NCBI GenBank assembly: GCA_045614225.1
Contig: JAZLCO010000085.1
Span: 4,164 to 68,163, forward strand
Source of the DNA: Eggerthellaceae bacterium
Lineage (GTDB): Bacteria > Actinomycetota > Coriobacteriia > Coriobacteriales > Eggerthellaceae
Reading direction: 5' to 3'
DNA: 64,000 bases
The position numbers were made by a program, and so were the translations under genes. This document shows positions 12,732-39,232 of the stretch, piece after piece. The notes under the pieces are model-generated. The model did no database searches, had not been told where the DNA came from, and worked only from the letters and a program-made list of their open reading frames with translations. How positions within the stretch are numbered: position 1 is the stretch's first letter; each line of letters starts with the position of its first letter.

Positions 12732-12733
12732 AG

Positions 12734-16862: not shown

Positions 16863-16878
16863 TCGTTCTCCGTTCGCC

Positions 16879-18489: not shown

Positions 18490-18503
18490 CGCCTTCGCTC
18501 TTC

Positions 18504-19322
18504 CTATGCGCCAGCGAGAGCGCTAGAGACGCGCGGATCGCCCTCGAACTGAATCGTTGCCTTGGAAAGCTTTTTACCGCCTTCCTTCAGCATGACCTGC
18601 AATCGCTTCATGTTCTCACCATCAATACAATCGAAATGGTTCAGAGCATAAGCAACGAGCTGAGACGCCTTCTTGGGAATTAGTTCCCCTTCTCCAGAAA
18701 TAAGCTCGATTGCTTTGCTGAATACCCGACCAGCATTGTCACTGTTGCTTTGCGCTTCTACTGCCTTGATCCAGTTGGCGTGGTTTTGGAATGCGAGCAC
18801 ATTCGCAAGTGCTTCGACGTTATCGGATAAGCATGGTATGAGAGAGACGTTTAGCTGCTCTTTCGTCGCCGTCCGCTTAGCAATTTCGGGCATTTCAACG
18901 ACATCCACGGCCTTCAACGACGGCACGTCGTCAAGAGGATCGCCCTTGAATGCGCCGGAAATCTTCTCTATGCTCGGCGGTAAAATAACCTGTTTCAAAT
19001 CAGCCACCCCTGCGAATGCGCTTTCTCCTATCTCGGTTACGCCATCAGATACGATTACTTCTTTCAGCCTATAGCAGCCATAAAATGCATATGAGCCAAT
19101 GGCTTTAACCGTCGACGGTATGGTAATCGTCTTTATACCCGCTCCTACAAATGCGCGTACACCTATTGTTTCCAGGCCCTCCGGGAGCTTAACCTCGGCC
19201 AGTTCACGTTGATTGAAGAAAGCCTCATATGCTATCTCCTTGATACCATCTGGGACCGTCACTATGTCGTCATTTCCTTCATATTTGACGAGCTTGCCTT
19301 CGTTTATCTCAAAACTTGCCAT
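18504..19322 (-). CDS. 272-aa cytoplasmic BspA-type LRR protein with C-terminal helical module
   Basis: Contains LRR_5 repeats (EAFFNQRELAEVKLPEGLETIGVRAFVGAGIKTITIPSTVKAIGSYAFYGCYRLKEV). No signal peptide is visible. Confidence 0.65.
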   Translation of the reverse strand: MASFEINEGKLVKYEGNDDIVTVPDGIKEIAYEAFFNQRELAEVKLPEGLETIGVRAFVGAGIKTITIPSTVKAIGSYAFYGCYRLKEVIVSDGVTEIGESAFAGVADLKQVILPPSIEKISGAFKGDPLDDVPSLKAVDVVEMPEIAKRTATKEQLNVSLIPCLSDNVEALANVLAFQNHANWIKAVEAQSNSDNAGRVFSKAIELISGEGELIPKKASQLVAYALNHFDCIDGENMKRLQVMLKEGGKKLSKATIQFEGDPRVSSALAGA

Positions 19323-19419
19323 ACTGCTCCTCTCATCCTTTCATGTTGCAACCGTCGCTGTTAAACGCTGAACCCACCTTGCTTTGCTATCTAAGACTTT
19401 CGCAATGCTCATCCAGCCT

Positions 19420-23065: not shown

Positions 23066-23067
23066 TC

Positions 23068-25578
23068 TTAGAGCTCCAAGCTATTGGCGGAGGCGCCCTC
23101 GAACATGTTTCCTTTCAGATCCATGAGCAGAGCCGCGGTCGAAGCCTTCCCCGCTGAAGAAGCGGACTCTATCGCCTTTTGCATCATTTTTTCAGTAATT
23201 GCACCATCCCATTTGCAGACAATCTTAATCTCGGAATCGTACCCGCTTTGCGCTAGCAGGTTCAGCAACGCACCCGTATTCTTAAAGCCCTTTGGGTCTA
23301 GATGCGGTACGAGCGCTCTGACGACTTCGGGATCTTGCTTGAGGTAGCGTTGATCCCACATGCTGGAAATGCGCTCAGGCGCAATCGAACAGACGGCTTT
23401 TGCGACGACGGTCGAGCAACCGGGGTACAGTAGGTCTTCGATATCGCATATATCTGCATGATGGTTCTGAGGCCCTCGCTGAACGTGCAGGGTAACGTAT
23501 TCCTCGTTCAGGCCGCCGCACTTTGCGAGCAATCTGGCAAGCTTAGGTTTTGGTTTTCCGCACATGTATATGGAATCTGATGATTCCGCGAGGCATGCGA
23601 GCATCAAGCCTTTCAGGTCCTTTGGGCAGAGCATGCCCTCTTCCGCATATGCGGATACAAGGCCATCGCTCTTCGATGACAGGGCGCATTGGTATATATA
23701 GTCAGGATTCGGCGGCGTATCCACATGTCGCCCGACACCCATCCTCCCCGGAATGTCGAGACCGTCTTCGCAAAGGACATCGTCAATGTATCGCTTTTGC
23801 CTGTTTGCCTGTTTTGAAAACGTGTCCCCTTTGAGCAAGGCGGGGACCATCGGCATCCCGAGAGTCACACCATGCTCCATCAGAGTTCGGGCGTTGTCGT
23901 CGTTCCCGAAGGCGATTGCATAACACAGGGCAATACTCGGCATCTCGAACTTTCCGAAGATTGCATAAAGCCGCTCTACGACCTCCGCATCACCCTTAAT
24001 TGCCCCATATTTAAGCAACCTCACGGCTTCGATGGGATTGACCTTGCCTGCAACGGGATCTAAGGCGTCAAGGCCGCTCGCATCGCCCTTGCGCATCGCC
24101 TCGATTGCCGCTGCGGTTAACTGCGCCACGCTCGCCCTTTTGGGTTTCGCCGCATCCTCTTTTGCTTTTTGCGCAAGCCCAGCAGACCTATATCCCAACT
24201 CCTCTAGCAATCTGGAACAGACGACGTCGCCGTCTTCGTCGAATGCCTTCGCCGCCTTCTTCGCATTTTTCTTAATGTATGCGGCATACTCGTCTTCCAT
24301 CGCACCACCGACAGCATGTCCGCACTTGGAATCAACGAGCCTCGTGACGGCAACCCTAATCTTATCCTCGAACTTCTTGATGCTCCCGTCATGGAAGCGG
24401 GAGTCGATTGCGTCGAAAGCGATACCGCTCGACAGTTCTGCAGCAATCGCGCCAGTGAGGTTTCCCTCGGGGGGAGTGTAGCCAGCCCGTGCGCAGCCTG
24501 CACCGTCTGCGCTGGCAACTGCGACGACGGTTCCCTTTGACGCTGCTAGATGCTCTTCAAAAGCACTTGCACAAGCGCTCGGCAGAATCACTGACTTTGT
24601 CCCGTAAAACGCCCCAGGAGCGATACTCTTCACCGTTTCGGGGATGGCCAAGGAGAGCTTAGCGCATTCCTCAAAGGCTCCCTCTTCTATGGTTATCAAA
24701 CTATCGGGAAGGTTGATTTCGCTGAAATCATACCTGCAACCATAGAACATATTTTCTGCGATTGCCGTTATCCCATCACCCAATTTTGCAGATTTAAGGT
24801 GCGAGCAATCGCTAAAAGCGCCATTTCGAGTTACTACGGTGTGGCCGAAAACGTTCCTGTTTCGTGTGGTCTCATGCGAAAAAGCATTAATACCTGAAGG
24901 TATGGTTACGTTTTTGACTCCAGAATATGCGAAAGCCCTTGGGCAGACTTCTTCAATATTGGAAGTGAGCACAACCATGTTAATAGTTGTTTTCTTGAAT
25001 GCGCCGGGAGCAATCCTTTTAACAGACTCTGGAACCACAAACTTCTTGACGGGTTTCTGCGTTGGCGGGAATAGCGCTAGCGTTTCGCCGCCGTCGGTGT
25101 ACAGGACTCCGTCAACGGATACGTTAGCCATTCCATCTCCGACAACTTTAATCGGACCATCGCAGCCATATCGAGTGCTATTAATTTCCGCACCTGCGGA
25201 AATGATAACCTCGTCGAATAGCGGTTCATTTGAATAAGAAACCCCCATCATCGGAAATGCTTCGAACCGCCTGACGCGGCGCAAATCGCATACCCCTTCG
25301 ACGATTTCCATATCCCTCGGGTCATCGCTTACGGAGTAGGTGACGACGCCCTTCACGTACCGGATATCCTCTATCGCTTCAGCCGCCATCACCTCGAGCG
25401 TATCGGGCAGGAGGAGGTATTTCACCTTGGAGCCATAACGGATGCACCCCTTTCCCAAAGAGCGTACACCGTAGGGGACAATCGCTCTGCCGTCGGGCTC
25501 TATGGCGGGAATCTCTCTAAGACGCCCGCTGTCGTCCGCAAACCCTGATCGAATGGCCTCTTCAAGATTCATAATCAC
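23068..25578 (-). CDS. 836-aa cytoplasmic LRR (BspA-type) plus ankyrin/helical-repeat protein
   Basis: Contains LRR_5 repeats (NMFYGCRYDFSEINLPDSLITIEEGAFEECAKL). The segment ALCYAIAFGNDDNARTLMEHGVTL is ankyrin-like. No signal peptide is visible. Confidence 0.6.
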   Translation of the reverse strand: MIMNLEEAIRSGFADDSGRLREIPAIEPDGRAIVPYGVRSLGKGCIRYGSKVKYLLLPDTLEVMAAEAIEDIRYVKGVVTYSVSDDPRDMEIVEGVCDLRRVRRFEAFPMMGVSYSNEPLFDEVIISAGAEINSTRYGCDGPIKVVGDGMANVSVDGVLYTDGGETLALFPPTQKPVKKFVVPESVKRIAPGAFKKTTINMVVLTSNIEEVCPRAFAYSGVKNVTIPSGINAFSHETTRNRNVFGHTVVTRNGAFSDCSHLKSAKLGDGITAIAENMFYGCRYDFSEINLPDSLITIEEGAFEECAKLSLAIPETVKSIAPGAFYGTKSVILPSACASAFEEHLAASKGTVVAVASADGAGCARAGYTPPEGNLTGAIAAELSSGIAFDAIDSRFHDGSIKKFEDKIRVAVTRLVDSKCGHAVGGAMEDEYAAYIKKNAKKAAKAFDEDGDVVCSRLLEELGYRSAGLAQKAKEDAAKPKRASVAQLTAAAIEAMRKGDASGLDALDPVAGKVNPIEAVRLLKYGAIKGDAEVVERLYAIFGKFEMPSIALCYAIAFGNDDNARTLMEHGVTLGMPMVPALLKGDTFSKQANRQKRYIDDVLCEDGLDIPGRMGVGRHVDTPPNPDYIYQCALSSKSDGLVSAYAEEGMLCPKDLKGLMLACLAESSDSIYMCGKPKPKLARLLAKCGGLNEEYVTLHVQRGPQNHHADICDIEDLLYPGCSTVVAKAVCSIAPERISSMWDQRYLKQDPEVVRALVPHLDPKGFKNTGALLNLLAQSGYDSEIKIVCKWDGAITEKMMQKAIESASSAGKASTAALLMDLKGNMFEGASANSLEL

Positions 25579-26251: not shown

Positions 26252-27121
26252 TCATCTCGATAAGCCAATACCCTCAATTACGCATGCTCGAATGTTTGTA
26301 ATAGCGTTATCCGATGAAGCGAACTCCAAAATGGCCATGTTATTAATGTCGGCCACGGTGTTTTTCCATGTCCCCTTTTCGCAGTCGGCGTTTTCGAAGC
26401 AGAGCAAGACTCGAGCGCCTAGCCGGTCGAGATTCTCTGCGTCGCAATCGAACCCCTTGAGGATCAATTCGAAAGCCTCCCCCGAGAGCTCATGACCATC
26501 GAATTCGTATACAGCCAAAACGGCCTCGTCGTCGGCGTAGTTTCCGTCTGGCATATAGGGCTCCATGTCGAAGAATTGGAACTCTATCTCGTCGGATTTC
26601 TCTTCAATACCCTCAAAAAAGTGGGGTATAACCTTTTCGCGTAAAAGGTCGATTCCTGCAGTCTCGATCATCTCCAGTAACGTTCCCTCGTCGCTTCCGA
26701 GAACGCTTCGCCATTCCGCCGCCGACATGGAAACGTTTATCTTTAACGTGTCCTCGAAGCACCATTCGAATCCGCGCGTATGGGAGAGGTCGACAACCTT
26801 GGCCTCTGCGGCCCCGTAGAGTTCATATCCATCGACGCCAAAATCGCTCTCGTAGATTATCGCGCCACCCGATCGTCCTTCTAATGCCCCGATTGCATTC
26901 ATAGCTGTTCCGATATCCGAACCCGGGGCGCCGTGCGATTCTCCATGGGCCTTAATCGAGATGTCAACGTATCCGCCGCCTTGCTCGAAGCTCTTCTCTC
27001 TGATTTCCCAGTGATCCGGCAGTTGATTGACGGCTTTACGAATCTCGCCAACGGCAGCATCAGCGCCATTGTCGTCCAAAAAAACTCGGGAACGTGCTGT
27101 TACGAATTGATACCAGGACAT
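26252..27121 (-). CDS. 289-aa acidic hypothetical protein
   Basis: A long ORF with a GAAAGGTGA RBS-like sequence upstream. I recognised no motif. Confidence 0.5.
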   Translation of the reverse strand: MSWYQFVTARSRVFLDDNGADAAVGEIRKAVNQLPDHWEIREKSFEQGGGYVDISIKAHGESHGAPGSDIGTAMNAIGALEGRSGGAIIYESDFGVDGYELYGAAEAKVVDLSHTRGFEWCFEDTLKINVSMSAAEWRSVLGSDEGTLLEMIETAGIDLLREKVIPHFFEGIEEKSDEIEFQFFDMEPYMPDGNYADDEAVLAVYEFDGHELSGEAFELILKGFDCDAENLDRLGARVLLCFENADCEKGTWKNTVADINNMAILEFASSDNAITNIRACVIEGIGLSR

Positions 27122-27248: not shown

Positions 27249-27710
27249 TCATTCACGGTTCTTGCGCCCATCTACCGCGCGGTTGAAGCTTCCGACTCTG
27301 CTTTTCAGTGTTTTGGCAAGTTGCTCGCCTTCCAATGCAAACTCTTCGAGTCCATCCGTCGAAAGCTTTCGGTTCAAAAGGTCATGGATGAGCGGATTGC
27401 GGCGCTCCTTCCAGGACCGCAGAGAGGCTATCAACTCTGGCGAAAAGTATCTGCAAGCCAGCTCGGACCGCTCCTCGCAAAGCTTCTCCAACTTGTTGAG
27501 CTTGGCGGTTATTGTCTTCTGCCTATTGGGATTGAAGGCGCTCGCGTGCCTCAACACCGATTCCAGCCGATCTTCGATAATCGCATACTCGATGAAGACA
27601 GCCTCCAGATAGAAATTGTTGCGCAGTGCCCTGGAAAGCCGCCGCATCTGCTCGGCATAGTTATCGCGCTTCTGCAGGTTGTCAGTCTCGTCCGTCATTA
27701 TCGTCCTCAT
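27249..27710 (-). CDS. 153-aa all-helical protein with candidate HEPN R-x4-H motif
   Basis: The ERRNPLIHD motif (RNPLIH fits R-x4-H) sits in the C-terminal half of a predicted helical protein. Confidence 0.35.
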   Translation of the reverse strand: MRTIMTDETDNLQKRDNYAEQMRRLSRALRNNFYLEAVFIEYAIIEDRLESVLRHASAFNPNRQKTITAKLNKLEKLCEERSELACRYFSPELIASLRSWKERRNPLIHDLLNRKLSTDGLEEFALEGEQLAKTLKSRVGSFNRAVDGRKNRE

Positions 27711-27833: not shown

Positions 27834-29321
27834 TTAGACGGCAGCTTCGACCAGCTTCTGCCAAATCTTCACCATGGCGAGGGTATCAAGCTCGCAGTAC
27901 CGCAACAGCTGCTCGCGGGTGCGGGCTACCTCATCGGGCTCCATCTCAGCCATCCTCGCAAAGGCATCCATCGCCTCGCCGCCGTTGTGAACGCCTTCGA
28001 GCGCACGGTAGTCGAGCTCGTGGTCGTTCGGGAACAATGCCGGCAACACGGCCTTTATCGAGTTGCTACCACCCATCGCGCGCACGTAATAGTCTCCGTT
28101 GCGGAACGGCACGATGAGGTCATGCATTCCCTCGTTGATGGCGAGCAGGTGTTCGGCCAAATCTGGAAAAGCATCGGCCAGCTCGCGTATACGCCCCTTC
28201 TCAAAGCCCATGTTATAGGCGAGCGTGCAGGCATCAGCGGGCACATCGGCCACGAGGTGCTCGGCGACGGCACGGCGAGGGTCCGTCCCTGCTTCGGCGA
28301 GGAACTCGCGATGCTCGAGTTCTCCTTTCGGCCCCCTCAGGATGTGAAGCGAGTACTGCGTCGGAATCTGCTGGTACGGCTTCGTTCCGTCGAACAGCGG
28401 AATCGCCGGCTGGAACGTCTCGAAATCCAAGAAATACAACGGAAAGCTGAGGTCATCCAGAAAGCGACGAACAGCCGCCTTGTCCACAAATTCGTCTCTG
28501 TCCCATGCTTCGGCTTTGACTTGCACTCGCTGTCTGCTATTCAGGGGGATATCTCGTTGAAAAGCGTCCGCAAGCGTGATTACTCCATCATCGCGGTAAG
28601 CAAGGGCCTTCTTCATGGTCATGTGGTTGAGGTCGAACACGCTCGGCCTCGGTACGTATCGCCAACACCATCCGCGATAGCCGCACTCGTAGGGCTTCTT
28701 GCACTGTACGCCGATCTCGTAATCAGGTTCTGATTTCAGTTCGGCGAATGCCTTCAGGTCATCAACGGTCGCCGCTACGTTCCCCGCCATGAACGAGACC
28801 TCGTCGGTGCAGTCCTCGATTGCAAACAGCTGTCGCAGGTCGAGCTCGCCCTCGCGCATATATTCGTTATTCAAGTGCATGAGGGAGACCGACTTCACGT
28901 TCAAACCGCACATGGAGAGCACCCATGCCTGGTAGGCCATGTCGTAGTAGTAGATGTCGTTCATATGGGTCGATGATTTCACCTCAACGATTCTCACGCC
29001 ATCTTCCTCCACGTAAAGTATGTCAACCATGCAAAGGTTGCCATCGTAGGAGAAGGTCGCCTCGCAAATGATGGGCGTGTTTGCCTCGAATAGCTCCTGC
29101 GTGCGCGAGATCATGCCTTCGTAGTCGTCCCGATTGAACGGGACTTCGACGAAGTCGCCGAAGTAGCCCATAGCAATGTCGCCTACCATGCTGCCAGCGT
29201 CAAGCAGGGACTGATTCATGACCGAGTCGTCGAACTTCTCACGCATGTGGATATCCATCCAAAGCATCTTCGGGCATTGGATTCCTTTTGTGAAGCGGGA
29301 TTTCGAAAGGTTCACCCTCAA
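27834..29321 (-). CDS. DUF2779-family protein with N-terminal PD-(D/E)xK (Cas4/RecB-like) nuclease domain
   Basis: The N-terminus LSKSRFTKGIQCPKMLW is typical of DUF2779. MVDILYV...IVEVKSS gives the D...ExK triad. A Cys cluster CKKPYECGYRGWC is present, and LDFETFQPAIPLFDGTKPYQQIPTQYSLH is the DUF2779 hallmark. Confidence 0.7.
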   Translation of the reverse strand: MRVNLSKSRFTKGIQCPKMLWMDIHMREKFDDSVMNQSLLDAGSMVGDIAMGYFGDFVEVPFNRDDYEGMISRTQELFEANTPIICEATFSYDGNLCMVDILYVEEDGVRIVEVKSSTHMNDIYYYDMAYQAWVLSMCGLNVKSVSLMHLNNEYMREGELDLRQLFAIEDCTDEVSFMAGNVAATVDDLKAFAELKSEPDYEIGVQCKKPYECGYRGWCWRYVPRPSVFDLNHMTMKKALAYRDDGVITLADAFQRDIPLNSRQRVQVKAEAWDRDEFVDKAAVRRFLDDLSFPLYFLDFETFQPAIPLFDGTKPYQQIPTQYSLHILRGPKGELEHREFLAEAGTDPRRAVAEHLVADVPADACTLAYNMGFEKGRIRELADAFPDLAEHLLAINEGMHDLIVPFRNGDYYVRAMGGSNSIKAVLPALFPNDHELDYRALEGVHNGGEAMDAFARMAEMEPDEVARTREQLLRYCELDTLAMVKIWQKLVEAAV

Positions 29322-31195
29322 TCGAACAACCCCTCGAATATCGCCTCCAAATCCTCTTCGGTGCTCGGAAGCGTCTCTAGCTCTTGGTCCGCGATAGCCC
29401 GCAGCATCGTCTCCTCCTTCTCGAGGAGCCGATTGTAGATGTTCGCGTCAAGGGAATAGGCGTCGTTGAAGTTGTCGTATACATCTTGGAGGAAGTAATA
29501 CTGGGTGTATTGCCCATCTGGAAGCCCCAACCGGTGAATCCTGTCCTTTGATTGCAGCAAATGCACAAGATTGAAACTATATTCGTAATAAATGGCATCA
29601 TGGCAAACGGAATGCAAGGACACGGATTCCGCAAGCGTGTGCGGGTTGGTTATCAACACGGGAAAGCCACCTGCCCGGAACGCATCCAGTATTAGCTCCC
29701 TGTCTTCTTGCGATGTCTCCCCGTGTACGACGGCGCATTGTAATCCGGCGGCGTTCAACCGTTGCCGAAGCATCAGCATCGACCTTATGAAGATGCACCA
29801 TACGATTACAGGCTTTCCTTCATTGGCCAATTGGGTAACCAGTGACACGCACTCTTCAACCTTGATTGACGGAGGGCATCTTCTAATCATGCCTTCAATT
29901 TCATCGCTGTAATCGACGTAATCTACTTCACCTGTCTCCTCATCTTCGTCGAGCAGCCATGCGAATTCGGAAGTGTCCAGCGTGTTGAGCAGCTGTTTGG
30001 GGTCGGTTTCCAGTTGAAGCACCCGCAACATGAGCGTGAGCGCATTCTTTCGATAACGCATCTTCAGAACGTCTAGCACGCGCTCCGTTTCATCGTCAAC
30101 GAAAAGCTCCCTGATACAGTTGGGTTGTGCCGGGGGCACGCCCAGGTCGTCTTTGGTTGTCCTGCAGAAGAACGGCTGTAGCTTCGAGTTGATGTGGGCT
30201 ATCTCGTACTCCGAAGGATCGCGTAGCATCGCTGGGCTGAAATTGAAGAACTCCTTGTACTCCAATGGGAAAAGAATGTTCAAGAAGTTGTAAATATCGA
30301 GGTACGTGTTGGGAATCGGTGTGCCCGTCAGCGCTATTGTCCGCTCGCTTGCGGAGGCGATTTCCAAAGCAGCGCTTGCCCATCTTCCGTTTATTCTCTT
30401 CACCCTATGCACTTCGTCGAATACCAGGAGCGCAGATTCGGAGACTATAGCCCTGAGCTCTTCGACATACGCAATTGAGGCCTCGTAGTTCACGAGGATA
30501 AGATTGCATCCTCCAGACTCGGCGCGCAGCCTCCGCTTCCGCTCCGCCCTTGGCAGGGAGGTAAAGAAGCTGTTCTGGACATTGAATTCACGCAGCTGCA
30601 TCTTGCCGCCGAAGCAGGCAAGAAACTCATTGCGCCAGGACTCGAAGGCGTTTTTCGGACATACCACCACAACGCGGCTAGCCAGTTCACGCTTTGTGAG
30701 ATACGCAAACACGCCTAGAACCGATGCCGTCTTGCCCGAGCCGGGCACCGAGAAATTGCCGGCCTTGGCCATTGCGCACATGAAGAAGGAGTCCCACATC
30801 TGACGTTCGCGTAAAGGCCTTTGCATGGCCTCATCTACGACATCAGCGTATTCGGTAAACTGGCTTATGAACTTCTCGTCGCGATTCTTTATCTCGATAC
30901 CGACCCTTGCCCTCTCCTCGGCGTATTCGCGCTTCGTCTCGATTGCGTCAAACACTTCCTGTGCGATATCGAGTTGGACGTCGAGCCTTTCTGCGACGGA
31001 AGCCAAGCGCCGTATCATCATCCTCGAATCTTCGGCGGTTTCCTGGCTTTTCAGCAGCAAACGGCCGTCGGGCAGCTCCTCCTCGACGTAACGCCTTACC
31101 TGGATGCGAAATGCTGGCTTTCTCTTGAAAACGGCGCATGGGAACGGCTCGGGGTCCAGTAACAGCAATCCGTCGGCCCCGTATTCCAGCTTCAT
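29318..31195 (-). CDS. SNF2-family helicase/ATPase
   Basis: Contains motif I VPGSGKT, motif II DEVH, motif III LTGTPIPN and motif VI QSKDRIHRLG. ATGA overlaps couple it to both neighbours. Confidence 0.85.
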   Translation of the reverse strand: MKLEYGADGLLLLDPEPFPCAVFKRKPAFRIQVRRYVEEELPDGRLLLKSQETAEDSRMMIRRLASVAERLDVQLDIAQEVFDAIETKREYAEERARVGIEIKNRDEKFISQFTEYADVVDEAMQRPLRERQMWDSFFMCAMAKAGNFSVPGSGKTASVLGVFAYLTKRELASRVVVVCPKNAFESWRNEFLACFGGKMQLREFNVQNSFFTSLPRAERKRRLRAESGGCNLILVNYEASIAYVEELRAIVSESALLVFDEVHRVKRINGRWASAALEIASASERTIALTGTPIPNTYLDIYNFLNILFPLEYKEFFNFSPAMLRDPSEYEIAHINSKLQPFFCRTTKDDLGVPPAQPNCIRELFVDDETERVLDVLKMRYRKNALTLMLRVLQLETDPKQLLNTLDTSEFAWLLDEDEETGEVDYVDYSDEIEGMIRRCPPSIKVEECVSLVTQLANEGKPVIVWCIFIRSMLMLRQRLNAAGLQCAVVHGETSQEDRELILDAFRAGGFPVLITNPHTLAESVSLHSVCHDAIYYEYSFNLVHLLQSKDRIHRLGLPDGQYTQYYFLQDVYDNFNDAYSLDANIYNRLLEKEETMLRAIADQELETLPSTEEDLEAIFEGLFD

Positions 31196-32427
31196 TCGCG
31201 GCCCTTTTGCTCAGCAGCTACGGCTTCGGACAAATCGTCGGCAAGGTTTATTATTCTTCCCAAGTCATTGGACATTTTCGAGAGGCTGCTGTTCGAAAGC
31301 TTGGAAATCAGCTCGAACTCGATTCGCTCGAGCTCAATCAGCGCTTTTGCGATGCTTTTCACCTGCGCTTCTTTGACGTTCTCGTTGTTCATCAATCGCC
31401 GGTGGCGTTCGACCGAAGCCCCCTGTTTGCCAACCAGATTTCGGTCAGCTCGAATCTTGTCCCTCACGAAATCAACGCTTACAGTCTCGCCTGTAGACAG
31501 GCCGTCGAACTTTTCAAGGACGTCTTGCGCGATTTCCAGCTGCTCTTCCAGGAAATCGTCTCCCTCTGTTGATAGGGCGATCTTTCCCATTTCCCTGACG
31601 CGGCGAGCCGAGTCGCCGTCGCCAATCAGAAAGTACGAGAACGCGGCCATCTTTATATCTTCCGCTTTCTCGTCATCGTGGCATTTCTTCAGCGTAGCAT
31701 GCAGTTCCTGCAACTGCCCTTGAAGCTTTAGGTCCTGAACGATGTGGAACTGCTCGTCGGCGTTTATGAATTCGAGGAACTGGCACATGAGGTCGACTTG
31801 AGCAAGATAGTCCTCCATCTCCTTGGGTTTCATCCCGCATCGCTTGCGGTATGTTTCCGAGTCGTAGTCACCCGCAACACACCATGTGTATATGTCGACC
31901 AGACGCGACACCGGGTCGTAAGAGACCTTTTCATCCTGGCCAAACTGAAGCTCGAGCTCTAACCCCTTAAGACTGTAGCTGTCCAGTGCGGAATCCAGAA
32001 CGAAGCATCTGAGGTACCTGGGCTGTCCGCCCTCCTCTTCCTGCAGCTTGCGAAGGCAGGTGAAGCGGCGGTTTCCATCGATAACCGTTCCATCGGAGAG
32101 AACGACGGCCGGCCTCTGCTGGCCCTTTTCGCGAATGTCCAGCTTTGTTTTGTTTAAAGCCTTTGGGTTGTCGTCCTCGATGAATTTGGCAATCAAGCTA
32201 TTGAACTCTTCTGACCCTTCATCTGGAAAGTCATCGTGGTCTTGCTTGTACCTGCTGATGTAAGTTGCAATTCTACCGTTTCTGACGTTGTACTTCAGCT
32301 TGTCGAGGCGTATTTCGTATACGCGGTAATCGTCGCGATGGCCTTCGATAACCAGCGTTTCCATTCCCGCTGTTTCATGGATGTATCCTTCGGATATGCC
32401 TTTTTCGATGAAGCTTTGAGCATCCAT
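31192..32427 (-). CDS. ParB/Srx N-terminal-domain protein with long helical C-terminal region
   Basis: YEIRLDKLKYNVRNGR ... VIDGNRRFTCL matches the ParB-type GxxR/arginine patch. A TAATG overlap couples it to the upstream gene. Confidence 0.6.
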   Translation of the reverse strand: MDAQSFIEKGISEGYIHETAGMETLVIEGHRDDYRVYEIRLDKLKYNVRNGRIATYISRYKQDHDDFPDEGSEEFNSLIAKFIEDDNPKALNKTKLDIREKGQQRPAVVLSDGTVIDGNRRFTCLRKLQEEEGGQPRYLRCFVLDSALDSYSLKGLELELQFGQDEKVSYDPVSRLVDIYTWCVAGDYDSETYRKRCGMKPKEMEDYLAQVDLMCQFLEFINADEQFHIVQDLKLQGQLQELHATLKKCHDDEKAEDIKMAAFSYFLIGDGDSARRVREMGKIALSTEGDDFLEEQLEIAQDVLEKFDGLSTGETVSVDFVRDKIRADRNLVGKQGASVERHRRLMNNENVKEAQVKSIAKALIELERIEFELISKLSNSSLSKMSNDLGRIINLADDLSEAVAAEQKGRE

Positions 32428-35400
32428 TAGTCAATCCTTTCTATGAAGACCGATCTCGTCTTGTAGATTTCGTCGGTGATGGGGCTGTAGTACAGGTCGG
32501 TTCTATTCGGAGCGCTCATAATCTTACTGCGTTTTAAGGTAATTCCGTAATCGACGGCTATGCAATCGATGAGCTCGTCAATTTGCATTGCCTCCTCGTC
32601 CCCGAGCTGGCTGTCTACGAACGACGCCGTGTTGCATGGCGCACCATCAAGGCACGCAATCTTGCCCCTCGCAGCCTCACCGCAATTTAGACCTGCAAAT
32701 CTCGTGCCTTCAGTGCAGAGTATTGCATCATAAAAAACATGGCCCATCTCGTACTCGAGCAAGGGATGGCTAAACCCCGCGCGCTCGAGGCGCCTCGTAT
32801 TGCAATATTCCAGATTCTTTGCATCACAAAACTCAGCTGCGGCAGATGCGAAATCCATCATGTCGGCTTCGCTTATCCCCATCTCATTCAATGCCGCTTC
32901 TGTAATGTAGGAGTCGACTCCTTCTGGAAGAAGCCTTCTGCTGCGTATGAGAGAATCTCGATATATCACATATGCATGCGACTCAATAACGCTACTTGGT
33001 AAATCTCTTGAACTGAAAAACGAAGAGCGAAAAATAACCGAGTCAAAATACTCATTCAACGAAGCCCATCTATCTCGAATCACCAATTCCGAGTAGACGC
33101 GAAATCCCAATCCGATGATTGCGCGCGCATTCACATTCTCCCTCTTGCCCGCTGGGCAAAGTTCAAGATAAATCCTCTCGATTTCGTCAACGGTATAGCA
33201 ATCATCAATCAGGCTTCTTGAAAGGACACTCGCCTCGTCGCGCGTAAAATCCGCGTAATCGGTTTCGATATAGCTGCCGACAATGTATTGCTTGATGCTC
33301 GATAGATAATTGGCCTTGAACGTCTGCGGCTCGACCCCGTATTCCTCCTCATACGCATCGGCAAAATCGTCCACGGAAATCGGGGCGAGCCTTCTCGCGA
33401 GCTCCTTAACTTGTCCTTCCCGATTCGCGGTTCTGCCGACTACCAATATCGGCATTCGCCTTGAAGGTTTGTAGGGTATATCCTTTCTCCCCCTGTTTTC
33501 TTCGTAGTAGATTCTGAGCAGGCTGTGCAGCTCGTATGCGTCATCAATGTCGTATTCGGACAAGAGCTCCTCGTTGTTCAGGAAAAAGACCCGCGTCGAA
33601 ATCTCTTTATTATGATAGCGCCTTAAATTGAGACCGTTTAATAAAGCATCGATGTCGTACTCACGATAATCGTAATAACGCATTCGTTTTCTGTATCCGC
33701 TTAAAACGCAGGGCTGGTGCCGCAAGGTCGCCGTGTACCTTTCAGCGAGCCTTAGCTTCTCGTCTTCCTCGAGTCCACTCACTTTAAGAAGCTCGTTGTA
33801 CCGACTGATAAACTCGTCATCGGTTATCGATTTTTTCGAGGCGTATGTTTTCAGTACATACAGTGATAGAGGCAGCTTCTTTGCCATCACATACTCGCCG
33901 TCAAGTTTGACATAGCCATCGTGAATCGCCTTGTCAAGCTGAAGCTTTACCCGATGCGGCAACGAGGAATCACCCAACAGGTCCGATGCCGGCCTCCTGA
34001 TTTCGCCTGCCCCCTCGTCAATCGATTCGTATACGAAAGAGACGACCTCCCATTCCTGAGACGACGCTCCAAGCCCGTCGCAGAGTTCTTTCCGTGATAA
34101 GTCGTACTCCCTGAGAAGATCGAGGTAGTGATTCGCTCTTGTCCCTTGCAGAGAGACTTTTTTTGCAGTAGCCGCTAAAATCTGCCTGACTCTTTCTCTG
34201 GTCAGTCCGCATTTAGAGCCGATTCCCTCGAGCGTCTCCCCTTTGAGGCGCCTTTTAAGGATTTCTTTCTGCCTATCATCAGCAACTGCATCATCAAGCA
34301 CCATATCTAGCGGATACTCTACTGCGAAATAAAGACCCCCCGTTTCCGTAATCTGTTTTTCGGTCGTTGCAAAATCAATTCCCCGCCTCACATACGAGTC
34401 CGATGCGTTGTCAAGCGCTAGATTGAAAGCATTCGCTAATTCGTCTGTCGACAAGCCCCACGGATTCCGAGCGATAAGATTCCTTGTTGCGTATCCAGCA
34501 AGCAAATTGAGAATGCGCTCCTCATCGATGTCTTGGAGTTCGTTGACAAGACCGAGAATGAACATTGGCGAAAGAACGACGTGCTCAGCTAGGTCTACCA
34601 ACAGACTTCTCACTGTTAGTCGAACATTATCATCCTCATCCTGTTGCTTCAGACCCTCTTGGCACTCATCCAACAGGGAGGCTTCGCTTCTTGCTTCGAC
34701 CTCGCTTTCCTCGGTTGATAGGATGGCCTCTTGATGAGCACCAGCAAAAGCCCTTAGCTGACAGTTTGCCCTATCTAGGATTTCGTCTATTGATTTTTTG
34801 CCAGCGTTTTTGAGGCCATGTAAACCGCTCTCTCCAAGCGAAAGAACCGCGCCAAGCGATTCCACCCCAGCAATACGCAAAACATTCCGCGCCCGCGTCG
34901 AAAGTCCACCAACATCAAAAGCAATTCCGTATAACTCCTCTGGAACCGCGTTTCCCTCCGAAGGGCTTATCGCCCCTGCCGATGAACTAAACTGTTCAGC
35001 TTGTGCAATGCGTTGTTTCGCATAATCGCTGATGGGGCTACCGTTGTTTTCGAATTCATCAACAAGCGACGGATTCAGCTTTCGTAAGGCATCTGCAATC
35101 TCGTTCACTGTTTTTACACCAGAGTTTCGCATTTCGGCAATGCGCGTAGTTCCGAACGAGCAAAGATCCGCCACCGTTTTGATTTTCGCACGTACGAGAA
35201 TGTTCGACGCCCTAGTGCTAAGACCCAAAGAATCAACCGAAGTAGAATACAATGACCCCAGCACACCGCCCTGCTCAACCATTTCGTCAAAGGCACGCAT
35301 CGAAGAGATTGCAATTTCATTTCTGACTTCGGGTGAAGATACGTATATCGCAATATCGGCGTTTTCTATCAACAGCAGCGATTCAGCAATGAGGTCGGCT

Positions 35401-35984
35401 TTTTCTCTTGCTGCATCTTCAAAACCTTCGCCTTCGCGAAGGAGTATCCCTTTTCCCCTCATATAATCGGCGAGCGATAGATGGCTTATGCGCTTAATCC
35501 GAGACTCTAGGATGTCGTCGTTTGATCGCGCATCTTCGTTTTCTCTGGTAATCGACGATGCTCCTTCCATGGTTGAGGATTGCTCCGACTCCTTTATCAT
35601 TTCGTTTGAGCAACGTGCAATGGCTGAGGCGATTTCGTCGCGCAACTCCAAGGGGATGTCTGTTTCAACATCTTTCATTTCGAGCTGAGAGAGAGCTTCG
35701 CGATTTCGAATTCCTCTGGCCATCAGGAATCGCCTGGCTTTCTTTGACAAGCGCAATGCTAAAATAGAATTTGCCTTGCCAGGCGCCGAAACAACCGCGC
35801 TTTGGGCATCTTCTAGTGACTCGCCTTCGGTACCTTCCGCGCAATTCGCTTCATCCCGGCGGACATATTCGACGCTGTCACCTAGCAGGCTAGCCAATAT
35901 TTCATCTCGGCTCATATTGATGACTTCAGTGGGATTGTTTGAGCCAATTAAATCATCGTCGTACATGCTGTAATCACCATCCAT
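32427..35984 (-). CDS. 1185-aa protein with RpoA-alphaCTD-like helix-hairpin-helix repeats, a sigma-70 region-4-like HTH and a C-terminal region of about 570 aa without recognised motifs
   Basis: LGLSTRASNILVRAKIKTVADLCSFGTTRIAEMRNSGVKTVNEIADAL and GGLSTRARNVLRIAGVESLGAVLSLGESGLHGLKNAGKKSIDEILD resemble the alphaCTD. ILKRRLKGETLEGIGSKCGLTRERVRQIL resembles sigma region 4. Confidence 0.6.
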   Translation of the reverse strand: MDGDYSMYDDDLIGSNNPTEVINMSRDEILASLLGDSVEYVRRDEANCAEGTEGESLEDAQSAVVSAPGKANSILALRLSKKARRFLMARGIRNREALSQLEMKDVETDIPLELRDEIASAIARCSNEMIKESEQSSTMEGASSITRENEDARSNDDILESRIKRISHLSLADYMRGKGILLREGEGFEDAAREKADLIAESLLLIENADIAIYVSSPEVRNEIAISSMRAFDEMVEQGGVLGSLYSTSVDSLGLSTRASNILVRAKIKTVADLCSFGTTRIAEMRNSGVKTVNEIADALRKLNPSLVDEFENNGSPISDYAKQRIAQAEQFSSSAGAISPSEGNAVPEELYGIAFDVGGLSTRARNVLRIAGVESLGAVLSLGESGLHGLKNAGKKSIDEILDRANCQLRAFAGAHQEAILSTEESEVEARSEASLLDECQEGLKQQDEDDNVRLTVRSLLVDLAEHVVLSPMFILGLVNELQDIDEERILNLLAGYATRNLIARNPWGLSTDELANAFNLALDNASDSYVRRGIDFATTEKQITETGGLYFAVEYPLDMVLDDAVADDRQKEILKRRLKGETLEGIGSKCGLTRERVRQILAATAKKVSLQGTRANHYLDLLREYDLSRKELCDGLGASSQEWEVVSFVYESIDEGAGEIRRPASDLLGDSSLPHRVKLQLDKAIHDGYVKLDGEYVMAKKLPLSLYVLKTYASKKSITDDEFISRYNELLKVSGLEEDEKLRLAERYTATLRHQPCVLSGYRKRMRYYDYREYDIDALLNGLNLRRYHNKEISTRVFFLNNEELLSEYDIDDAYELHSLLRIYYEENRGRKDIPYKPSRRMPILVVGRTANREGQVKELARRLAPISVDDFADAYEEEYGVEPQTFKANYLSSIKQYIVGSYIETDYADFTRDEASVLSRSLIDDCYTVDEIERIYLELCPAGKRENVNARAIIGLGFRVYSELVIRDRWASLNEYFDSVIFRSSFFSSRDLPSSVIESHAYVIYRDSLIRSRRLLPEGVDSYITEAALNEMGISEADMMDFASAAAEFCDAKNLEYCNTRRLERAGFSHPLLEYEMGHVFYDAILCTEGTRFAGLNCGEAARGKIACLDGAPCNTASFVDSQLGDEEAMQIDELIDCIAVDYGITLKRSKIMSAPNRTDLYYSPITDEIYKTRSVFIERID

Positions 35985-36008: not shown

Positions 36009-37292
36009 TCAATCATAATCAAATCTCCGGGTTATCTCTATGCCAATAGCATGAGGAAGGCCGACCACCAGAGCATTTCCCATGCAAAACGCGCGATGGC
36101 TGTCGGTCATACCAGTGTCCGTCCAGCCTTTCGGGAAACCCTGGAGCTGGTCGAGCTCGTCGGGGACGAGGCGGCGGTAGCGGCCGTCGATCTCCACAAT
36201 GTGCTTGAAGCGGGATGCGCCCGCTCCGCCCTCGCCGGTGAGGATGGTGCGTGACGGGTTTGTGAGCAAATCGGGGAAGGCCATCGACCCCTCCGAGTAG
36301 TGGTACGTGAACTCGGTCCCGTCGGCGCCCCGCTTGGTGCGCTCCTCGCTCTTGGAGCCCTTGAGGTAGCGCCACTTCTCGAGCTTGTCCTCGGGGACGT
36401 AGAACGCCTCGGGGACCTCTTCCGGCGGGACTATCACGTCGCCGAGCACCTTGCGCTCGCCGTGGTAGTCCTCGACGGCGTCGCACGTGACGGCTCGGAG
36501 GTCGCTCATCGCGCCTGCCGTCCCGAAGGGCGACTTGCCCTTGCCGCCGACGTTGAATTCCTGAGTCACGACGTAGGGGTCTTCGGGAATAATAACCTCG
36601 GAGAACGATTCGGGCTGCATTATGGGCAGTGCTGACGACAGCACGCCGGATGACACGCGCCCCTCGAGGTCCCAGTTCTCGGATGTCAGCTCGGCGTAGA
36701 TGTAGACGCGCTTCCTGCGCTGCGGGAACCCGTACTCGGCGCTGTTCACGACGCGCCACTCGACCGAGTAGCCGAGGTCGGCCAGGCACGAGAGGATGAT
36801 CGCGAAGTCGCGGCCGCGCTGCGTAGCGGGGCTCTTGAGGAGCCGGTCGACGTTCTCGAGCAGCACGTACCTCGGCTCCTTGAGGTGCAGGAAGCGGTAG
36901 ATGTCCCACCACAGCACGCCCTTCTTGCCCTCGATGCCGCCGGCTTGGGACAGGGGCCTGGCCACGCTGTAGTCCTGGCAGGGGAAGCCCCCGACCACCA
37001 TGTCTATCTCTTCCGGGATGCCGTGGTCGTCGGCGCCGAACTCGTAGTCGTCGAGCACCTTGTCGATGTCCTCGTTGACGCAGCTGCCCTCGCCGAAGCG
37101 GGCCTCGTAGCAACGCCATGCGAACTGCTTGGTCTCGTTTCCGGGGGGTTCCCACTGGTTGGCCCAGACCGTCTCGAACGGCCCTGCGGCTGGCATGTCG
37201 AATTCGGGATGTGCGGGGTCGTGGTACCCGTCGAGTCCCAGGCGAAAGCCCCCGACGCCGGCGAAGAGCTCGGCGACTCTGATGGTCTTCAT
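36009..37292 (-). CDS. DNA (cytosine-5) methyltransferase, M.Sau3AI-like
   Basis: The m5C motifs are present: I ELFAGVGGFRLG, IV GGFPCQDYS, VI LLENVDRL, VIII FPQRRKRVY and X MGNALVV. The ANQWEP and ATQRGRDFAIILS stretches resemble M.Sau3AI from memory. Confidence 0.85.
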   Translation of the reverse strand: MKTIRVAELFAGVGGFRLGLDGYHDPAHPEFDMPAAGPFETVWANQWEPPGNETKQFAWRCYEARFGEGSCVNEDIDKVLDDYEFGADDHGIPEEIDMVVGGFPCQDYSVARPLSQAGGIEGKKGVLWWDIYRFLHLKEPRYVLLENVDRLLKSPATQRGRDFAIILSCLADLGYSVEWRVVNSAEYGFPQRRKRVYIYAELTSENWDLEGRVSSGVLSSALPIMQPESFSEVIIPEDPYVVTQEFNVGGKGKSPFGTAGAMSDLRAVTCDAVEDYHGERKVLGDVIVPPEEVPEAFYVPEDKLEKWRYLKGSKSEERTKRGADGTEFTYHYSEGSMAFPDLLTNPSRTILTGEGGAGASRFKHIVEIDGRYRRLVPDELDQLQGFPKGWTDTGMTDSHRAFCMGNALVVGLPHAIGIEITRRFDYD

Positions 37293-37405: not shown

Positions 37406-38800
37406 CTATTCCGCTATCCGTTTGATTTCGCCCTTGAGGTACTGCGCGTTTAGCCAGAAGCACTTCTTCACGACCATGTCGCCCTGAGGGGTTGGCAGAA
37501 CGTCGGTGTTGTCTCGGCCGTGTGGGCGCACGTGGCAGCAGCGGTTCTCCGACGACTTAACGGAATCCTGGGCGCGTCCAGCAATCACGCGGGAGCGCAT
37601 CTCCTCGTAGCAGCGCTTGGCTTCCTCCAGGTCGTCTTCGGGCATCTGCCAGAACGCAACGTCGGCCAATCGGTAGACGCCACGCTCGTTCTCGTCTTCC
37701 CGATAGATGACGAAAAGGTACTTCTGGTCGAGGTAGCTTGCGAAGTCGCTCTCCTCGAAGGGAGTTGCTGCCAGCTCGAAGTAGTCGAAGCGCGGGAACG
37801 ACACCGACTCCTTCGGTGTGCCGTTCCACTTCATGCGCATGGTCTTAGGTTTGATGCCCGCCTTCTCGAACTCCTCGATTTTGGCGTCGTCTGAAACTCC
37901 GAGAATGCGCCGCGTGATGAGGGCGCAAAGGTTTTTCGGCTTGCGCTTGCCCGGTTTGATGTATTCGAACTGTTCGCCTAGCTCTTGCTCGGTGAGTCCG
38001 AAGAAAGGTTCGAAGCGGGCGCGAACGAGGTCGATAAGCGTCATGCTCTTCTCGTTCTCTGCGCGTTCGATTGACTGCATGCCCTCGATAATCCGGTTCG
38101 ACATCGCCGTCATGAACGATGATTTAAGAGCCCAGGCACGCGGTTTAGCTGGAATGTCGGAATAGGGTTGTTTGCGGCGGACCTTCGACGTCGACGATTT
38201 AGTGCAAGCTTCGAGATAGAGGGTGTCCGACCCGGACAGCTCGTGAGCTCTGCCGTCGCGCACCTTGTTGACAACGGTTTCCCAGTCGGCTTTGATTTGC
38301 GCAATATCGCCCTCAGGCAACCCATGAAGGCTGACCATTTCCACGAGCTCGATGCGGTAGTCAAGTGGGTCCGTATCTGGTTCCCACAAGTACGATATCA
38401 GCAAGATATCCTCGGCCTTTTCCATGAGATGGCTCGTTTCGAAGGTCTCATTAACGACCTGCATGTAGTCAATCATGCCGAGCACGAGCCGCTCCTTGGC
38501 TGAGAGGGCTCCGTCCCTGTTACGTTTGAGGGGAGTGGTCTTCAACTCCAGACCAGCCTCGGCGAAATCAGCCTCGGACTTGCTGTTGAGGTCGAGCATG
38601 AAGTAGCAGGTTTCCACCGCGTTTCCAAACGACCCCTTGTTCCTGCTGATGTCCGCAAGCTTGTCTGCATCTGTCTTTTCGCGCAGGGTTGAACCACGCA
38701 GGTCGACAGCATAGTGGTAAACGGATTGCCTGTCGTTCTTATCGTATGGAAACTTGCCATCCAATGTAGCTACGTTCTCCTCTGCATTCGTCGATTGCAC
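37406..38800 (-). CDS. MutH/Sau3AI-family type II restriction endonuclease (GATC-type predicted)
   Basis: AGLELKTTPLKR...SAKERLVLGMIDY, DGRAHELSGSDTLYLEACTK, RRKQPYSDIPAKPRAWALKSSFMT and CCHVRPHG match my recollection of Sau3AI blocks. The length (464 aa) is appropriate. Confidence 0.8.
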   Translation of the reverse strand: MQSTNAEENVATLDGKFPYDKNDRQSVYHYAVDLRGSTLREKTDADKLADISRNKGSFGNAVETCYFMLDLNSKSEADFAEAGLELKTTPLKRNRDGALSAKERLVLGMIDYMQVVNETFETSHLMEKAEDILLISYLWEPDTDPLDYRIELVEMVSLHGLPEGDIAQIKADWETVVNKVRDGRAHELSGSDTLYLEACTKSSTSKVRRKQPYSDIPAKPRAWALKSSFMTAMSNRIIEGMQSIERAENEKSMTLIDLVRARFEPFFGLTEQELGEQFEYIKPGKRKPKNLCALITRRILGVSDDAKIEEFEKAGIKPKTMRMKWNGTPKESVSFPRFDYFELAATPFEESDFASYLDQKYLFVIYREDENERGVYRLADVAFWQMPEDDLEEAKRCYEEMRSRVIAGRAQDSVKSSENRCCHVRPHGRDNTDVLPTPQGDMVVKKCFWLNAQYLKGEIKRIAE

Positions 38801-38907: not shown

Positions 38908-39033
38908 GACCAGCGGGTACACACGGGGTGCACACCGCCACCGAAACCTGCATGAAAGCGGCTGAATCTACGCGACTGGCTCAGCGCTGATTATCCTATT
39001 TACCTGCACTTTTACTTACATCGCCATACGGCG
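38908..39033 (+). repeat. right-end arm of the island (homologous to 12782-12889)
   Basis: See the partner segment at 12782-12889. This segment ends exactly at the displaced tRNA 3-prime fragment. Confidence 0.7.
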
Positions 39034-39093
39034 CCGGCCTGTCACGTCGGAGGTCGCGAGTTCAAGTCTCGTACATCCCGCCACGAAACTACT
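39031..39093 (+). repeat. direct repeat copy 2: displaced 3-prime half of tRNA-Asp (att-like), followed by its own diverged terminator hairpin (39094-39123)
   Basis: This 63-bp stretch is identical to 12669-12731 and lacks the tRNA 5-prime half. A hairpin ggtcagtcc/gggctggcc (two G-U pairs) plus ttttt follows. Confidence 0.9.
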
Positions 39094-39232
39094 GGTCAGT
39101 CCACTAAACGGGCTGGCCTTTTTGTATCTATGGGATTCCGAAACAGCTGGTGATGAACGACCTGCTTGGCAGCCGATTGCGATGGCTGCAGACCAGGACG
39201 CCCTGCGTGACCTCAACGCTTTCCCGACGATG

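Follow-up and report, generated by a model that had tools for sequence, protein, structure and literature searches.

A run of four abutting or overlapping genes (positions 27834-35984, minus strand) in a 64,000-nucleotide stretch of an Eggerthellaceae bacterium genome (GenBank assembly GCA_045614225.1, contig JAZLCO010000085.1, positions 4,164 to 68,163; hereafter the window) raises the question of whether these genes form a new defence system, as an earlier note made from the sequence alone had proposed, and which of them belong to it. We find that the evolutionary unit comprises three genes, because a large DNA-binding adaptor, a ParB-like protein and an SNF2-family ATPase are conserved together in related loci without the fourth gene, which encodes a DUF2779 protein. 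Judged from sequence, this three-gene cassette is a strong candidate for an undescribed and unnamed anti-phage module: its relatives occupy defence contexts and it matches no system named in PADLOC v2, NCBIfam r20 or Pfam, so that the proposal of a candidate new defence system stands with its unit reduced from four genes to three.

A three-gene cassette within a four-gene operon

All four genes are co-directional. The first (32427-35984) encodes the 1185-aa adaptor, the second (31192-32427) a 411-aa ParB/Noc-like protein, the third (29318-31195) a 625-aa SNF2-family ATPase in a short form without nuclease domain and the fourth, specific to this locus (27834-29321), a 495-aa DUF2779 protein. 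Of the overlaps originally read as TAATG, ATGA and ATGA, the first two are present, the adaptor and ParB-like genes overlapping by 1 nt and the ParB-like and SNF2 genes by 4 nt, whereas the junction between SNF2 and DUF2779 reads GATTGAGGGTG and contains no ATGA. The DUF2779 start codon at this junction is thus either TTG, with a 4-nt overlap with the TGA stop, or GTG, 2 nt past the stop. Although a local addition, the DUF2779 gene is translationally coupled to the cassette. A consensus scan for promoters and terminators gave signals at or below chance and carries no information on the operon structure.

Neighbouring genes in related loci (designated by numbers preceded by L) were labelled by BLAST and hidden Markov model (HMM) searches on called open reading frames (ORFs), and the counts rest on 70 recovered ParB-like genes. 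The ParB-like gene is followed directly by an SNF2 gene in 65 of 66 genome loci and in 26 of 27 IMG/VR loci, and it is directly preceded by a gene for a protein with the C-terminal module of the adaptor in 60 of 66 genome loci and in none of 22 IMG/VR loci. A DUF2779 homologue adjoins the cassette in none of about 130 related loci, including the closest two, L092 and L093, whose ParB-like proteins are 61-65% identical to that of the window. The suggested trio of DUF2779, SNF2 and ParB-like genes thus does not recur, DUF2779 accompanying the cassette only in the window, whereas adaptor, ParB-like and SNF2 genes do. Physically the four genes overlap or abut as a single unit; by co-conservation only three of them form one. 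DUF2779 as a fixed fourth subunit is ruled out, and the protein is either an effector particular to this locus or a bystander.

For the ParB-like protein, 816 close homologues were found, and its profile retrieved 1570 clusters at 50% identity, 248 of them with E ≤ 1e-30. When one genome per GTDB species was scanned with a sequence pattern, the family was present in at least 546 species-level genomes, and it extends over Coriobacteriia, Clostridia, Bacilli, Leptotrichia, Alistipes, Spirochaetia and a Methanomethylophilaceae archaeon. Across loci, identity to the window proteins is 40-69% for SNF2, 34-65% for the ParB-like protein and 22-43% for the adaptor, which is the fastest-evolving protein of the cassette. 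Additionally, the cassette was found in 67 plasmid records, 52 of them from Enterococcus, and 61 of the 67 plasmids were typed as conjugative or mobilizable; on the E. faecalis plasmid pQZ076-2 it stands alone beside insertion sequence (IS) debris.

Many Collinsella loci (L012, L039, L040, L050 and L053-L088) carry a conserved gene for a 300-364-aa protein 1-4 nt after SNF2. This protein begins with a globular domain and ends in a coiled coil, the two being joined by an acidic low-complexity linker; it has no Pfam match, and in some of these loci its gene is followed by a second adaptor of 1074 aa.

The adaptor combines RNA polymerase-type domains with a winged-helix array

The features of the four proteins are given below by their window coordinates, all on the minus strand. 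As had been noticed from the sequence, the 1185-aa protein contains helix-hairpin-helix (HhH) repeats and a helix-turn-helix (HTH). The HhH repeats correspond to two domains of the type found at the C-terminus of the RNA polymerase α subunit (αCTD; Pfam RNA_pol_A_CTD, E 1.3e-23), and they score like genuine RpoA C-terminal domains (NCBIfam rpoA models, E 5.7e-21). The first (residues 246-301, 35082-35249; Pfam RNA_pol_A_CTD and NCBIfam rpoA) bears an LSTRASN motif and keeps the counterparts of R265, N268, G296 and K298. The second (residues ~360-420, 34725-34907), a separate Pfam stretch, bears the motif LSTRARN, and a weak NCBIfam PRK07758 match to residues ~77-106 (about 35667-35756) points to a possible third, degenerate copy. 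The HTH is a σ70 region 4 domain (σ4; residues 569-609, 34158-34280; Pfam Sigma70_r4, E 8.1e-7), which in a Foldseek comparison was 39% identical to S. aureus σA domain 4 with a root-mean-square deviation of 1.5 Å; the matched structure was determined together with phage G1 ORF67.

More than half of the adaptor (residues ~610-1185, 32430-34157) is a tandem winged-helix array, recognized in an AlphaFold2 (AF2) model of the C-terminal part that was built with 17 homologues as input and reached a predicted local distance difference test (pLDDT) score of 85.6. The top Foldseek matches of the array in the PDB are tandem winged-helix proteins, namely UFL1/DDRGK1, Dcc1, SelB WH2-4 and ESCRT-II. A profile of the C-terminal half retrieved only αCTD and σ4 from the PDB. 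No enzymatic domain was found in the adaptor with the domain libraries or with the AF2 model and Foldseek.

The last ~250 residues (32430-33179) form a family-specific module common to all adaptors. The N-termini vary from locus to locus around this constant module and consist of αCTD/σ4 domains, OmpR-type winged helix-turn-helix (wHTH) domains or a MutH nuclease. The αCTD/σ4 N-terminus occurs in the common adaptor form of ~900 aa, and adaptors embedded in BREX operons carry two OmpR-type wHTH domains or, in some cases, no recognisable N-terminal domain. Such polymorphism is typical of sensors. In L066 (6008-7561) and L085 (5982-7538), an extra protein of 517-518 aa, encoded immediately upstream of the adaptor, fuses a MutH nuclease to the same C-terminal module, and an HMM of this module matches all adaptors as well as the MutH fusions. 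These fusions suggest that the module, which may serve for docking, brings nucleases as well as DNA binders to the ParB-like/SNF2 core. We also considered whether the adaptor C-terminus could be a degenerate MutH/Sau3AI domain and rejected this, the fusions sharing the C-terminal module and not the nuclease domain with the adaptors, and the model consisting of winged helices.

The ParB-like and SNF2 proteins keep their nucleotide-binding motifs

The 411-aa protein is ParB/Noc-like by fold only. Its AF2 model (pLDDT 87.5) gave, as the 25 best Foldseek matches in the PDB, exclusively ParB, Noc, Spo0J and pNOB8 ParB structures with probabilities of 0.98-1.0. At the sequence level, no match was obtained in Pfam, NCBIfam r20 or PADLOC v2 (the latter at E ≤ 0.01), PDB searches with phmmer and with an 18-sequence profile returned noise, and a cluster look-up yielded no names. 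The ParB/Srx domain previously assigned to this protein is thus borne out by structure and not by sequence. The fold of the N-terminal domain is accompanied by the arginine-rich nucleotide-binding box (GxxRxxA-type) and its flanking boxes: box I (YNxxNGRI, 32269-32292), box II (DGNRR, 32065-32079) and box III (LELELQ, 31945-31962). Residues N47, N50, R52, D117-G-N-R-R121, K154, E157 and Q161 are invariant in 36 diverse members of the family sharing 24-57% identity.

The SNF2 protein had been described as a translocase with intact helicase motifs, which holds: GSGKT (30728-30742), DEVH (30407-30418) and QSKDRIHRLG (29525-29554) are all present. Both the N-lobe (Pfam SNF2-rel_dom, E 7.4e-18) and Helicase_C (E 1.1e-11) were identified with motifs I, II and VI, and sequence matches in the PDB are to Chd1 and ISWI over residues 151-560. 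Relatives of a longer form carry an N-terminal PLD nuclease domain; the window protein aligns from its residue 29 to residue 264 of the long form and lacks this PLD domain.

DUF2779 is a predicted dual nuclease

The earlier note ascribed to the DUF2779 protein a PD-(D/E)xK triad and a cysteine cluster of Cas4/AddB type. Both are present, and the protein additionally contains a DEDDy exonuclease domain, so that it is predicted to be a dual nuclease and not a PD-(D/E)xK enzyme only. It matches Pfam DUF2779 (E 1.3e-44) and Cas_Cas4 (E 2.5e-5, 24.8 bits against a cut-off of 22.7). The N-terminal Cas4-like PD-(D/E)xK domain with four cysteines (28647-29321) and the C-terminal DEDDy 3'-5' exonuclease domain (27876-28436) display the complete Cas4-like triad with its four cysteines and the ExoI-III motifs, respectively. 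In 12 DUF2779 sequences of 54-75% identity, D100, E113, K115, C16, C207, C213 and C219 are invariant, and so is the DEDDy set D299, E301, N370..F373-E374 and Y475..D479. Our literature searches on DUF2779 returned domain predictions only; these agree with the Cas4-like and DEDDy assignment (PMC3985635, PMC13621843), and the family has been placed in a 3'-5' exonuclease clade (PMC3985635).

The deposited annotation apparently starts the gene at M19, giving a product of 477 aa (P0300) from which the invariant N-terminal Cys16 is removed. Since homologues span the whole N-terminus, the coupled start is the better one and the deposited start is probably mis-annotated. The nearest DUF2779 homologues (73-76% identity) adjoin a DEAD helicase or a HipA toxin module. 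In L133-L135 (3517-8494), the DUF2779 homologue is preceded by two genes, one for a DEAD/ResIII helicase of 696 aa that includes a phosphoribosyltransferase domain and one for a 425-aa protein without assignment, and the three may constitute another helicase-nuclease trio.

Relatives of the cassette lie in restriction and BREX contexts

In the window, the adaptor gene starts 24 nt after the end of a gene for a C5 cytosine DNA methyltransferase (C5 MTase; 36009-37292, minus strand, 427 aa; Pfam DNA_methylase E 8.8e-56, PADLOC MTase_II E 2e-150), itself preceded by the gene for a Sau3AI/MutH-type type II restriction endonuclease (REase; 37406-38800, minus strand, 464 aa; Pfam MutH E 9.2e-35, PADLOC REase_II PDLC03553 E 4.3e-82). 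The reported position of the operon, 24 nt downstream of a Sau3AI-type restriction-modification (R-M) pair, was confirmed in the sequence, and the enzyme type was recovered by both Pfam and PADLOC. A MutH-fold REase together with a C5 MTase identifies a Sau3AI-type type II system, with a predicted GATC specificity. This pair is probably a partner of the cassette and not a bystander: distant relatives again have nucleases of the Sau3AI/MutH type and C5 MTases as neighbours, and many relatives are found within BREX operons.

The combination of a Sau3AI/MutH-like nuclease and a C5 MTase flanks the cassette not only in the window but also in L092, in the loci L066, L085 and L091 from Planomicrobium, Bacillus and Paraclostridium, and in the IMG/VR loci L126 and L127. 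In L092, the MTase is 64% identical to that of the window and the cassette proteins 64-69%, compared with 33% for the REase. A distant clade, represented by about 20 IMG/VR contigs and by the Streptococcus prophage Javan191 at its left end, has the order C5 MTase, a DpnII/BanI-like protein of 309 aa, ParB-like, SNF2 and a NOV_C nuclease; overall, a C5 MTase is present in 20 of 28 IMG/VR loci. In L097-L101, the ParB-like/SNF2 pair begins 2 nt after type III Mod and Res genes. Several Collinsella and Coriobacteriaceae lineages carry the cassette between PglX and PglZ in type 1-like BREX operons, mostly without BrxL, and in other loci it lies directly upstream of brxB and brxC.

The nucleases associated with the cassette are diverse. 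PLDc_2 is fused to the N-terminus of SNF2 in 8 loci, which include L066 and L091, and other cassettes are accompanied by a UvrD-PDDEXK_1 protein, by an RNase_T exonuclease and UvrD, by NOV_C or, in some loci, by no nuclease. GmrSD follows the cassette in L073 and L076. L094 (1-5909) contains a second adaptor/ParB-like pair followed by McrB and McrC at the place where SNF2 would be, and this block lies directly upstream of a full cassette; McrBC thus seems able to replace SNF2. In L005 (1-5725), a second αCTD adaptor is followed by a PARG/ADP-ribosylglycohydrolase/Macro protein, with McrB, McrC and a full cassette downstream, and a PARG homologue is also found near L063.

The cassette shares its logic, not its composition, with named systems

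The four products matched no named system in PADLOC-DB v2, NCBIfam r20 or Pfam, and the ParB-like protein and the C-terminal module of the adaptor have no model in any of the three. The earlier statement that the composition fits neither DISARM, BREX, Dpd nor Dnd holds for this window by Pfam, PADLOC, NCBIfam and tblastn searches. Our literature search found no paper that describes or names the adaptor, ParB-like and SNF2 combination. The cassette is not mentioned in the paper on BREX diversity or its supplements (PMC12839542), papers on HEPN and Dnd mention ParB and SNF2 only in other contexts, and the RefSeq accessions of the E. faecalis triad (WP_002362439, WP_002403427 and WP_002362442) appear in no paper. 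In plasmid records, PGAP names the adaptor "sigma factor-like HTH DNA-binding protein", the ParB-like product "hypothetical protein" and the SNF2 product "DEAD/DEAH box helicase". ARMADA II was considered and set aside as an unrelated DUF1998 system.

The cassette shares its general logic with DISARM, BREX, Dpd and Menshen and differs from them in composition. Like DISARM, it can unite an SNF2 ATPase, a PLD nuclease (fused, in the long-form relatives) and a DNA methyltransferase in one locus; in PADLOC, the C5 MTase of the window matches DrmMII models and SNF2 weakly matches DrmD models. However, DrmA and DrmB (DUF1998) are missing from the window, and DISARM has neither a ParB-like protein nor an αCTD/σ4/winged-helix adaptor. 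DUF1998 was absent from the 8 window products scanned with Pfam, the sole DrmA match in PADLOC was weak (E 2.8e-7) and fell on the Helicase_C part of SNF2, and SNF2 scored 46.6 bits against a cut-off of 610 for NCBIfam DISARM_DrmD, short of the equivalog level. As for the DrmC PLD nuclease, the window SNF2 has no PLD domain and the operon no PLD gene.

In BREX types 3 and 5, the SNF2 helicase BrxHII lies between the methyltransferase and PglZ, in the interval held by many relatives of the cassette. The window nevertheless lacks PglZ, PglX and BrxC, and BrxHII, a TUDOR-SNF2-iREase protein (PMC12839542), has no ParB-like or adaptor partner. Searching the whole window by tblastn with BrxB, BrxC, PglX, PglZ and BrxL from L008 and L009 gave no match, and only the Helicase_C part of the window SNF2 matches BrxHII (PADLOC, E 7.9e-6). 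Dpd likewise places a ParB-superfamily protein, DpdB, and an SNF2-like protein, DpdE, in a modification-linked defence locus, and the window SNF2 weakly matches DpdE. The island surrounding the operon differs in that it carries no DpdA/TGT and has a C5 MTase as its modification enzyme; none of 16 island and flanking products contains a DpdA/TGT domain, and the ParB-like protein has no DpdB match in PADLOC.

With Menshen, the cassette has in common a three-part logic, a ParB-superfamily component, polymorphic N-terminal DNA-binding sensors and shuffled nuclease effectors. Menshen (PMC12065111) consists of the ParB-DUF262 sensor NsnA, the ATPase NsnB and the polymorphic nuclease NsnC. The present ParB-like protein is, in contrast, nearer to canonical ParB/Noc than to DUF262, and the motor is SNF2 instead of the NsnB ATPase; the four products have no PADLOC Nsn match, nor GmrSD_N/DUF262 in Pfam. 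SauUSI-type enzymes resemble the long-form relatives, which fuse a PLD nuclease to an SF2/SNF2 helicase, and one IMG/VR SNF2 protein has a weak PADLOC PLD_Helicase match. SauUSI is however a single polypeptide with its own target-recognition domain, whereas the window SNF2 has no PLD and the partner proteins are different. Finally, chromosomal ParB/Noc CTPase clamps are the best structural matches of the ParB-like protein, whose N-domain aligns with them over 250-300 columns with the residues of boxes I, II and III conserved. They differ by their ParA and partition context, which the cassette lacks, and by the ~410-aa length and long helical C-terminus of the cassette protein.

A candidate nucleotide-gated restriction module and its alternatives

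On a modest balance of probability, we take the cassette to be a nucleotide-gated, translocase-driven module that would act by restriction against invading DNA with a swappable nuclease, alongside methylation-based immunity. In the order of events that we infer, the adaptor, which contains DNA-binding modules only, would select the DNA; the ParB-like protein, as an NTP-dependent and probably CTP-dependent switch or clamp, would license the complex; SNF2 would then translocate along the DNA; and the swappable nuclease, represented here by the coupled Cas4-like/DEDDy protein, would degrade it. The latter protein could resect both strand polarities after an initial break, and the Sau3AI-type REase and C5 MTase would probably supply the first cut, the self-marking or both. 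Such a module is argued for by the intact catalytic motifs in the ParB boxes, in SNF2 and in both nuclease sets of DUF2779, by the co-conservation of the three genes, by the defence contexts of the relatives, by the exchange of nucleases between loci, by the sensor-like polymorphism of the adaptors and by the presence of the cassette on an island and on plasmids.

Several observations weigh against it. The main gap concerns the minimal form of the cassette, devoid of nuclease and methyltransferase, for which the model accounts for neither the effector nor the discrimination of self from non-self; many cassettes do stand alone with a short SNF2 and no nuclease or methyltransferase nearby (L034-L038, pQZ076-2). 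As DUF2779 is not conserved with the cassette, its role in the window could be incidental. Among 102 neighbouring proteins surveyed with Pfam, housekeeping, mobile and defence functions were mixed and no uniform defence island emerged. Furthermore, the 80 genome loci kept were those closest to the query and rich in Collinsella, and in their GC-rich DNA the greedy ORF caller missed 10-11 ParB-like genes.

Should the cassette be a defence module, it would be widespread and apparently unnamed, being found in no fewer than 546 genomes at species level as well as on Enterococcus plasmids and at the edges of streptococcal prophages, and it would bring a canonical-type ParB nucleotide switch, together with an SNF2 motor, into immunity. 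The recurrent placement of the cassette in the PglX-PglZ interval of BrxL-less loci has a bearing on how BREX stops phages and on which motors or effectors it can use. That the cassette is coupled to nucleases of the Sau3AI/DpnII type and to C5 MTases hints at how simple type II R-M could have developed into ATP-dependent multi-subunit restriction. For experiments, the copy on the E. faecalis plasmid is a tractable starting point.

Our chief alternative, which we consider unlikely, is an obligate accessory role of the cassette in BREX or R-M systems, to which it would contribute an SNF2 motor and a DNA-loading switch without being a restriction system itself. In the window it would serve the Sau3AI/C5-MTase pair, DUF2779 being an unrelated neighbour, and it would be comparable to BrxHII in BREX types 3 and 5 or to DrmD in DISARM. 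This explanation draws on the Collinsella cassettes that fill, in loci without BrxL, the very PglX-PglZ interval where type 3 BREX has BrxHII, on the 2-nt gap after type III Res in L097-L101, on the recurrence of the C5 MTase in the IMG/VR loci, on the identity of the L092 MTase, which tracks that of the cassette while that of the REase does not, and on the many cassettes without a nuclease of their own. In most genome loci outside Collinsella, nevertheless, no gene for an MTase or for a BREX or R-M component lies within about 10 kb, such a gene being detected in 27 of 70 genome loci by a reference BLAST of low sensitivity. The PLD-SNF2 fusions and tightly coupled nucleases, moreover, suggest that the cassette has its own effector, and the Enterococcus plasmid copies stand alone.

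The RNA polymerase-like domains of the adaptor raise a less likely alternative. T4 Alt and ModA ADP-ribosylate R265 of the αCTD, and AsiA and gp67 bind σ4. The adaptor could accordingly be an RNA polymerase mimic that acts as a decoy for phage takeover factors, or a reader of UP-element/-35 promoter sequences, and would in either case trigger the ParB-like and SNF2 proteins. Such a role, which we judge highly improbable, is consistent with αCTDs that score as RpoA domains and keep the counterparts of R265, N268, G296 and K298, with the likeness of the adaptor σ4 to the S. aureus domain solved with ORF67, and with the PARG/ADP-ribosylglycohydrolase/Macro protein of L005 and the PARG homologue near L063. 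However, αCTD and σ4 are also ordinary DNA-binding folds, and PglW of type 2 BREX contains the same αCTD-like region. BREX-embedded adaptors, with their OmpR-type wHTH domains or without recognisable N-terminal domain, do not have these parts, and the distant IMG/VR clade has no such adaptor at all. As a variant, and still a long shot, the adaptor, by mimicking the two RNA polymerase modules most frequently hijacked by phages, might be a guard-type sensor assembled from RNA polymerase parts, in which the binding of a takeover factor, ADP-ribosylation or promoter reading would activate the ParB-like CTP clamp, and this would load SNF2 and the nuclease. If true, this would link the takeover of transcription to restriction and to BREX and R-M back-up.

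Least probable of all is that the cassette serves a mobile element, either in partition or regulation (ParB and HTH) or in anti-restriction and establishment like the polyvalent proteins that phages and conjugative elements encode, in which ParB, SNF2 and MTase domains reportedly co-occur (PMC5512222): the tRNA islands, the mostly conjugative or mobilizable plasmids, the prophage edge and the sigma factor-like PGAP name of the adaptor speak for it, but there is no ParA partner, the cassette occurs inside chromosomal BREX operons, it is fused or coupled to PLD, NOV_C, McrC and UvrD-PDDEXK nucleases and to REase-fold proteins, and its genes are separate instead of forming one fused polyvalent protein.

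The operon lies in a tRNA-borne island

The cassette, DUF2779 and the R-M pair are located in an island of 26.3 kb bounded by 68-nt direct repeats of the 3' end of tRNA-Asp, in agreement with the tRNA-borne island described before. The left boundary is the 3' part of the tRNA-Asp gene (12669-12736, plus strand) and the right one its 99% identical repeat (39031-39098, plus strand). The GC content is 0.49-0.55 within the island and 0.57-0.62 outside. A second repeat of 35 nt, 91% identical, is found just inside both ends (12855-12889 and 38999-39033). No integrase gene was recognised among the island genes, and an IS-type transposase-like ORF (10560-12011), which has no Pfam match, lies just upstream of the tRNA.

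The remainder of the island is a seven-gene block on the minus strand (12880-25578). It encodes three BspA-type LRR_5 proteins, one of them with DUF6273, a MoxR-like AAA ATPase, a DUF4132 protein, a DUF2201 VWA/metallopeptidase protein and a 658-aa protein without match, and by its predicted domains it resembles a conflict system of the MoxR-VWA type. LRR_5 and DUF2201_N each occur twice among the 102 neighbours of related cassettes, and the adaptor homologue P0275 has a weak DUF2201_N match at its N-terminus. Between this block and the operon, on the minus strand, lie genes for a 289-aa protein (26252-27121) with no match in Pfam, PADLOC or NCBIfam and for a 153-aa protein (27249-27710) with a sub-threshold match to HEPN_Cthe2314 (E 5.9e-4, 20.3 bits, cut-off 27.1). 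In L092, a HepT/MNT pair is located downstream of the cassette.

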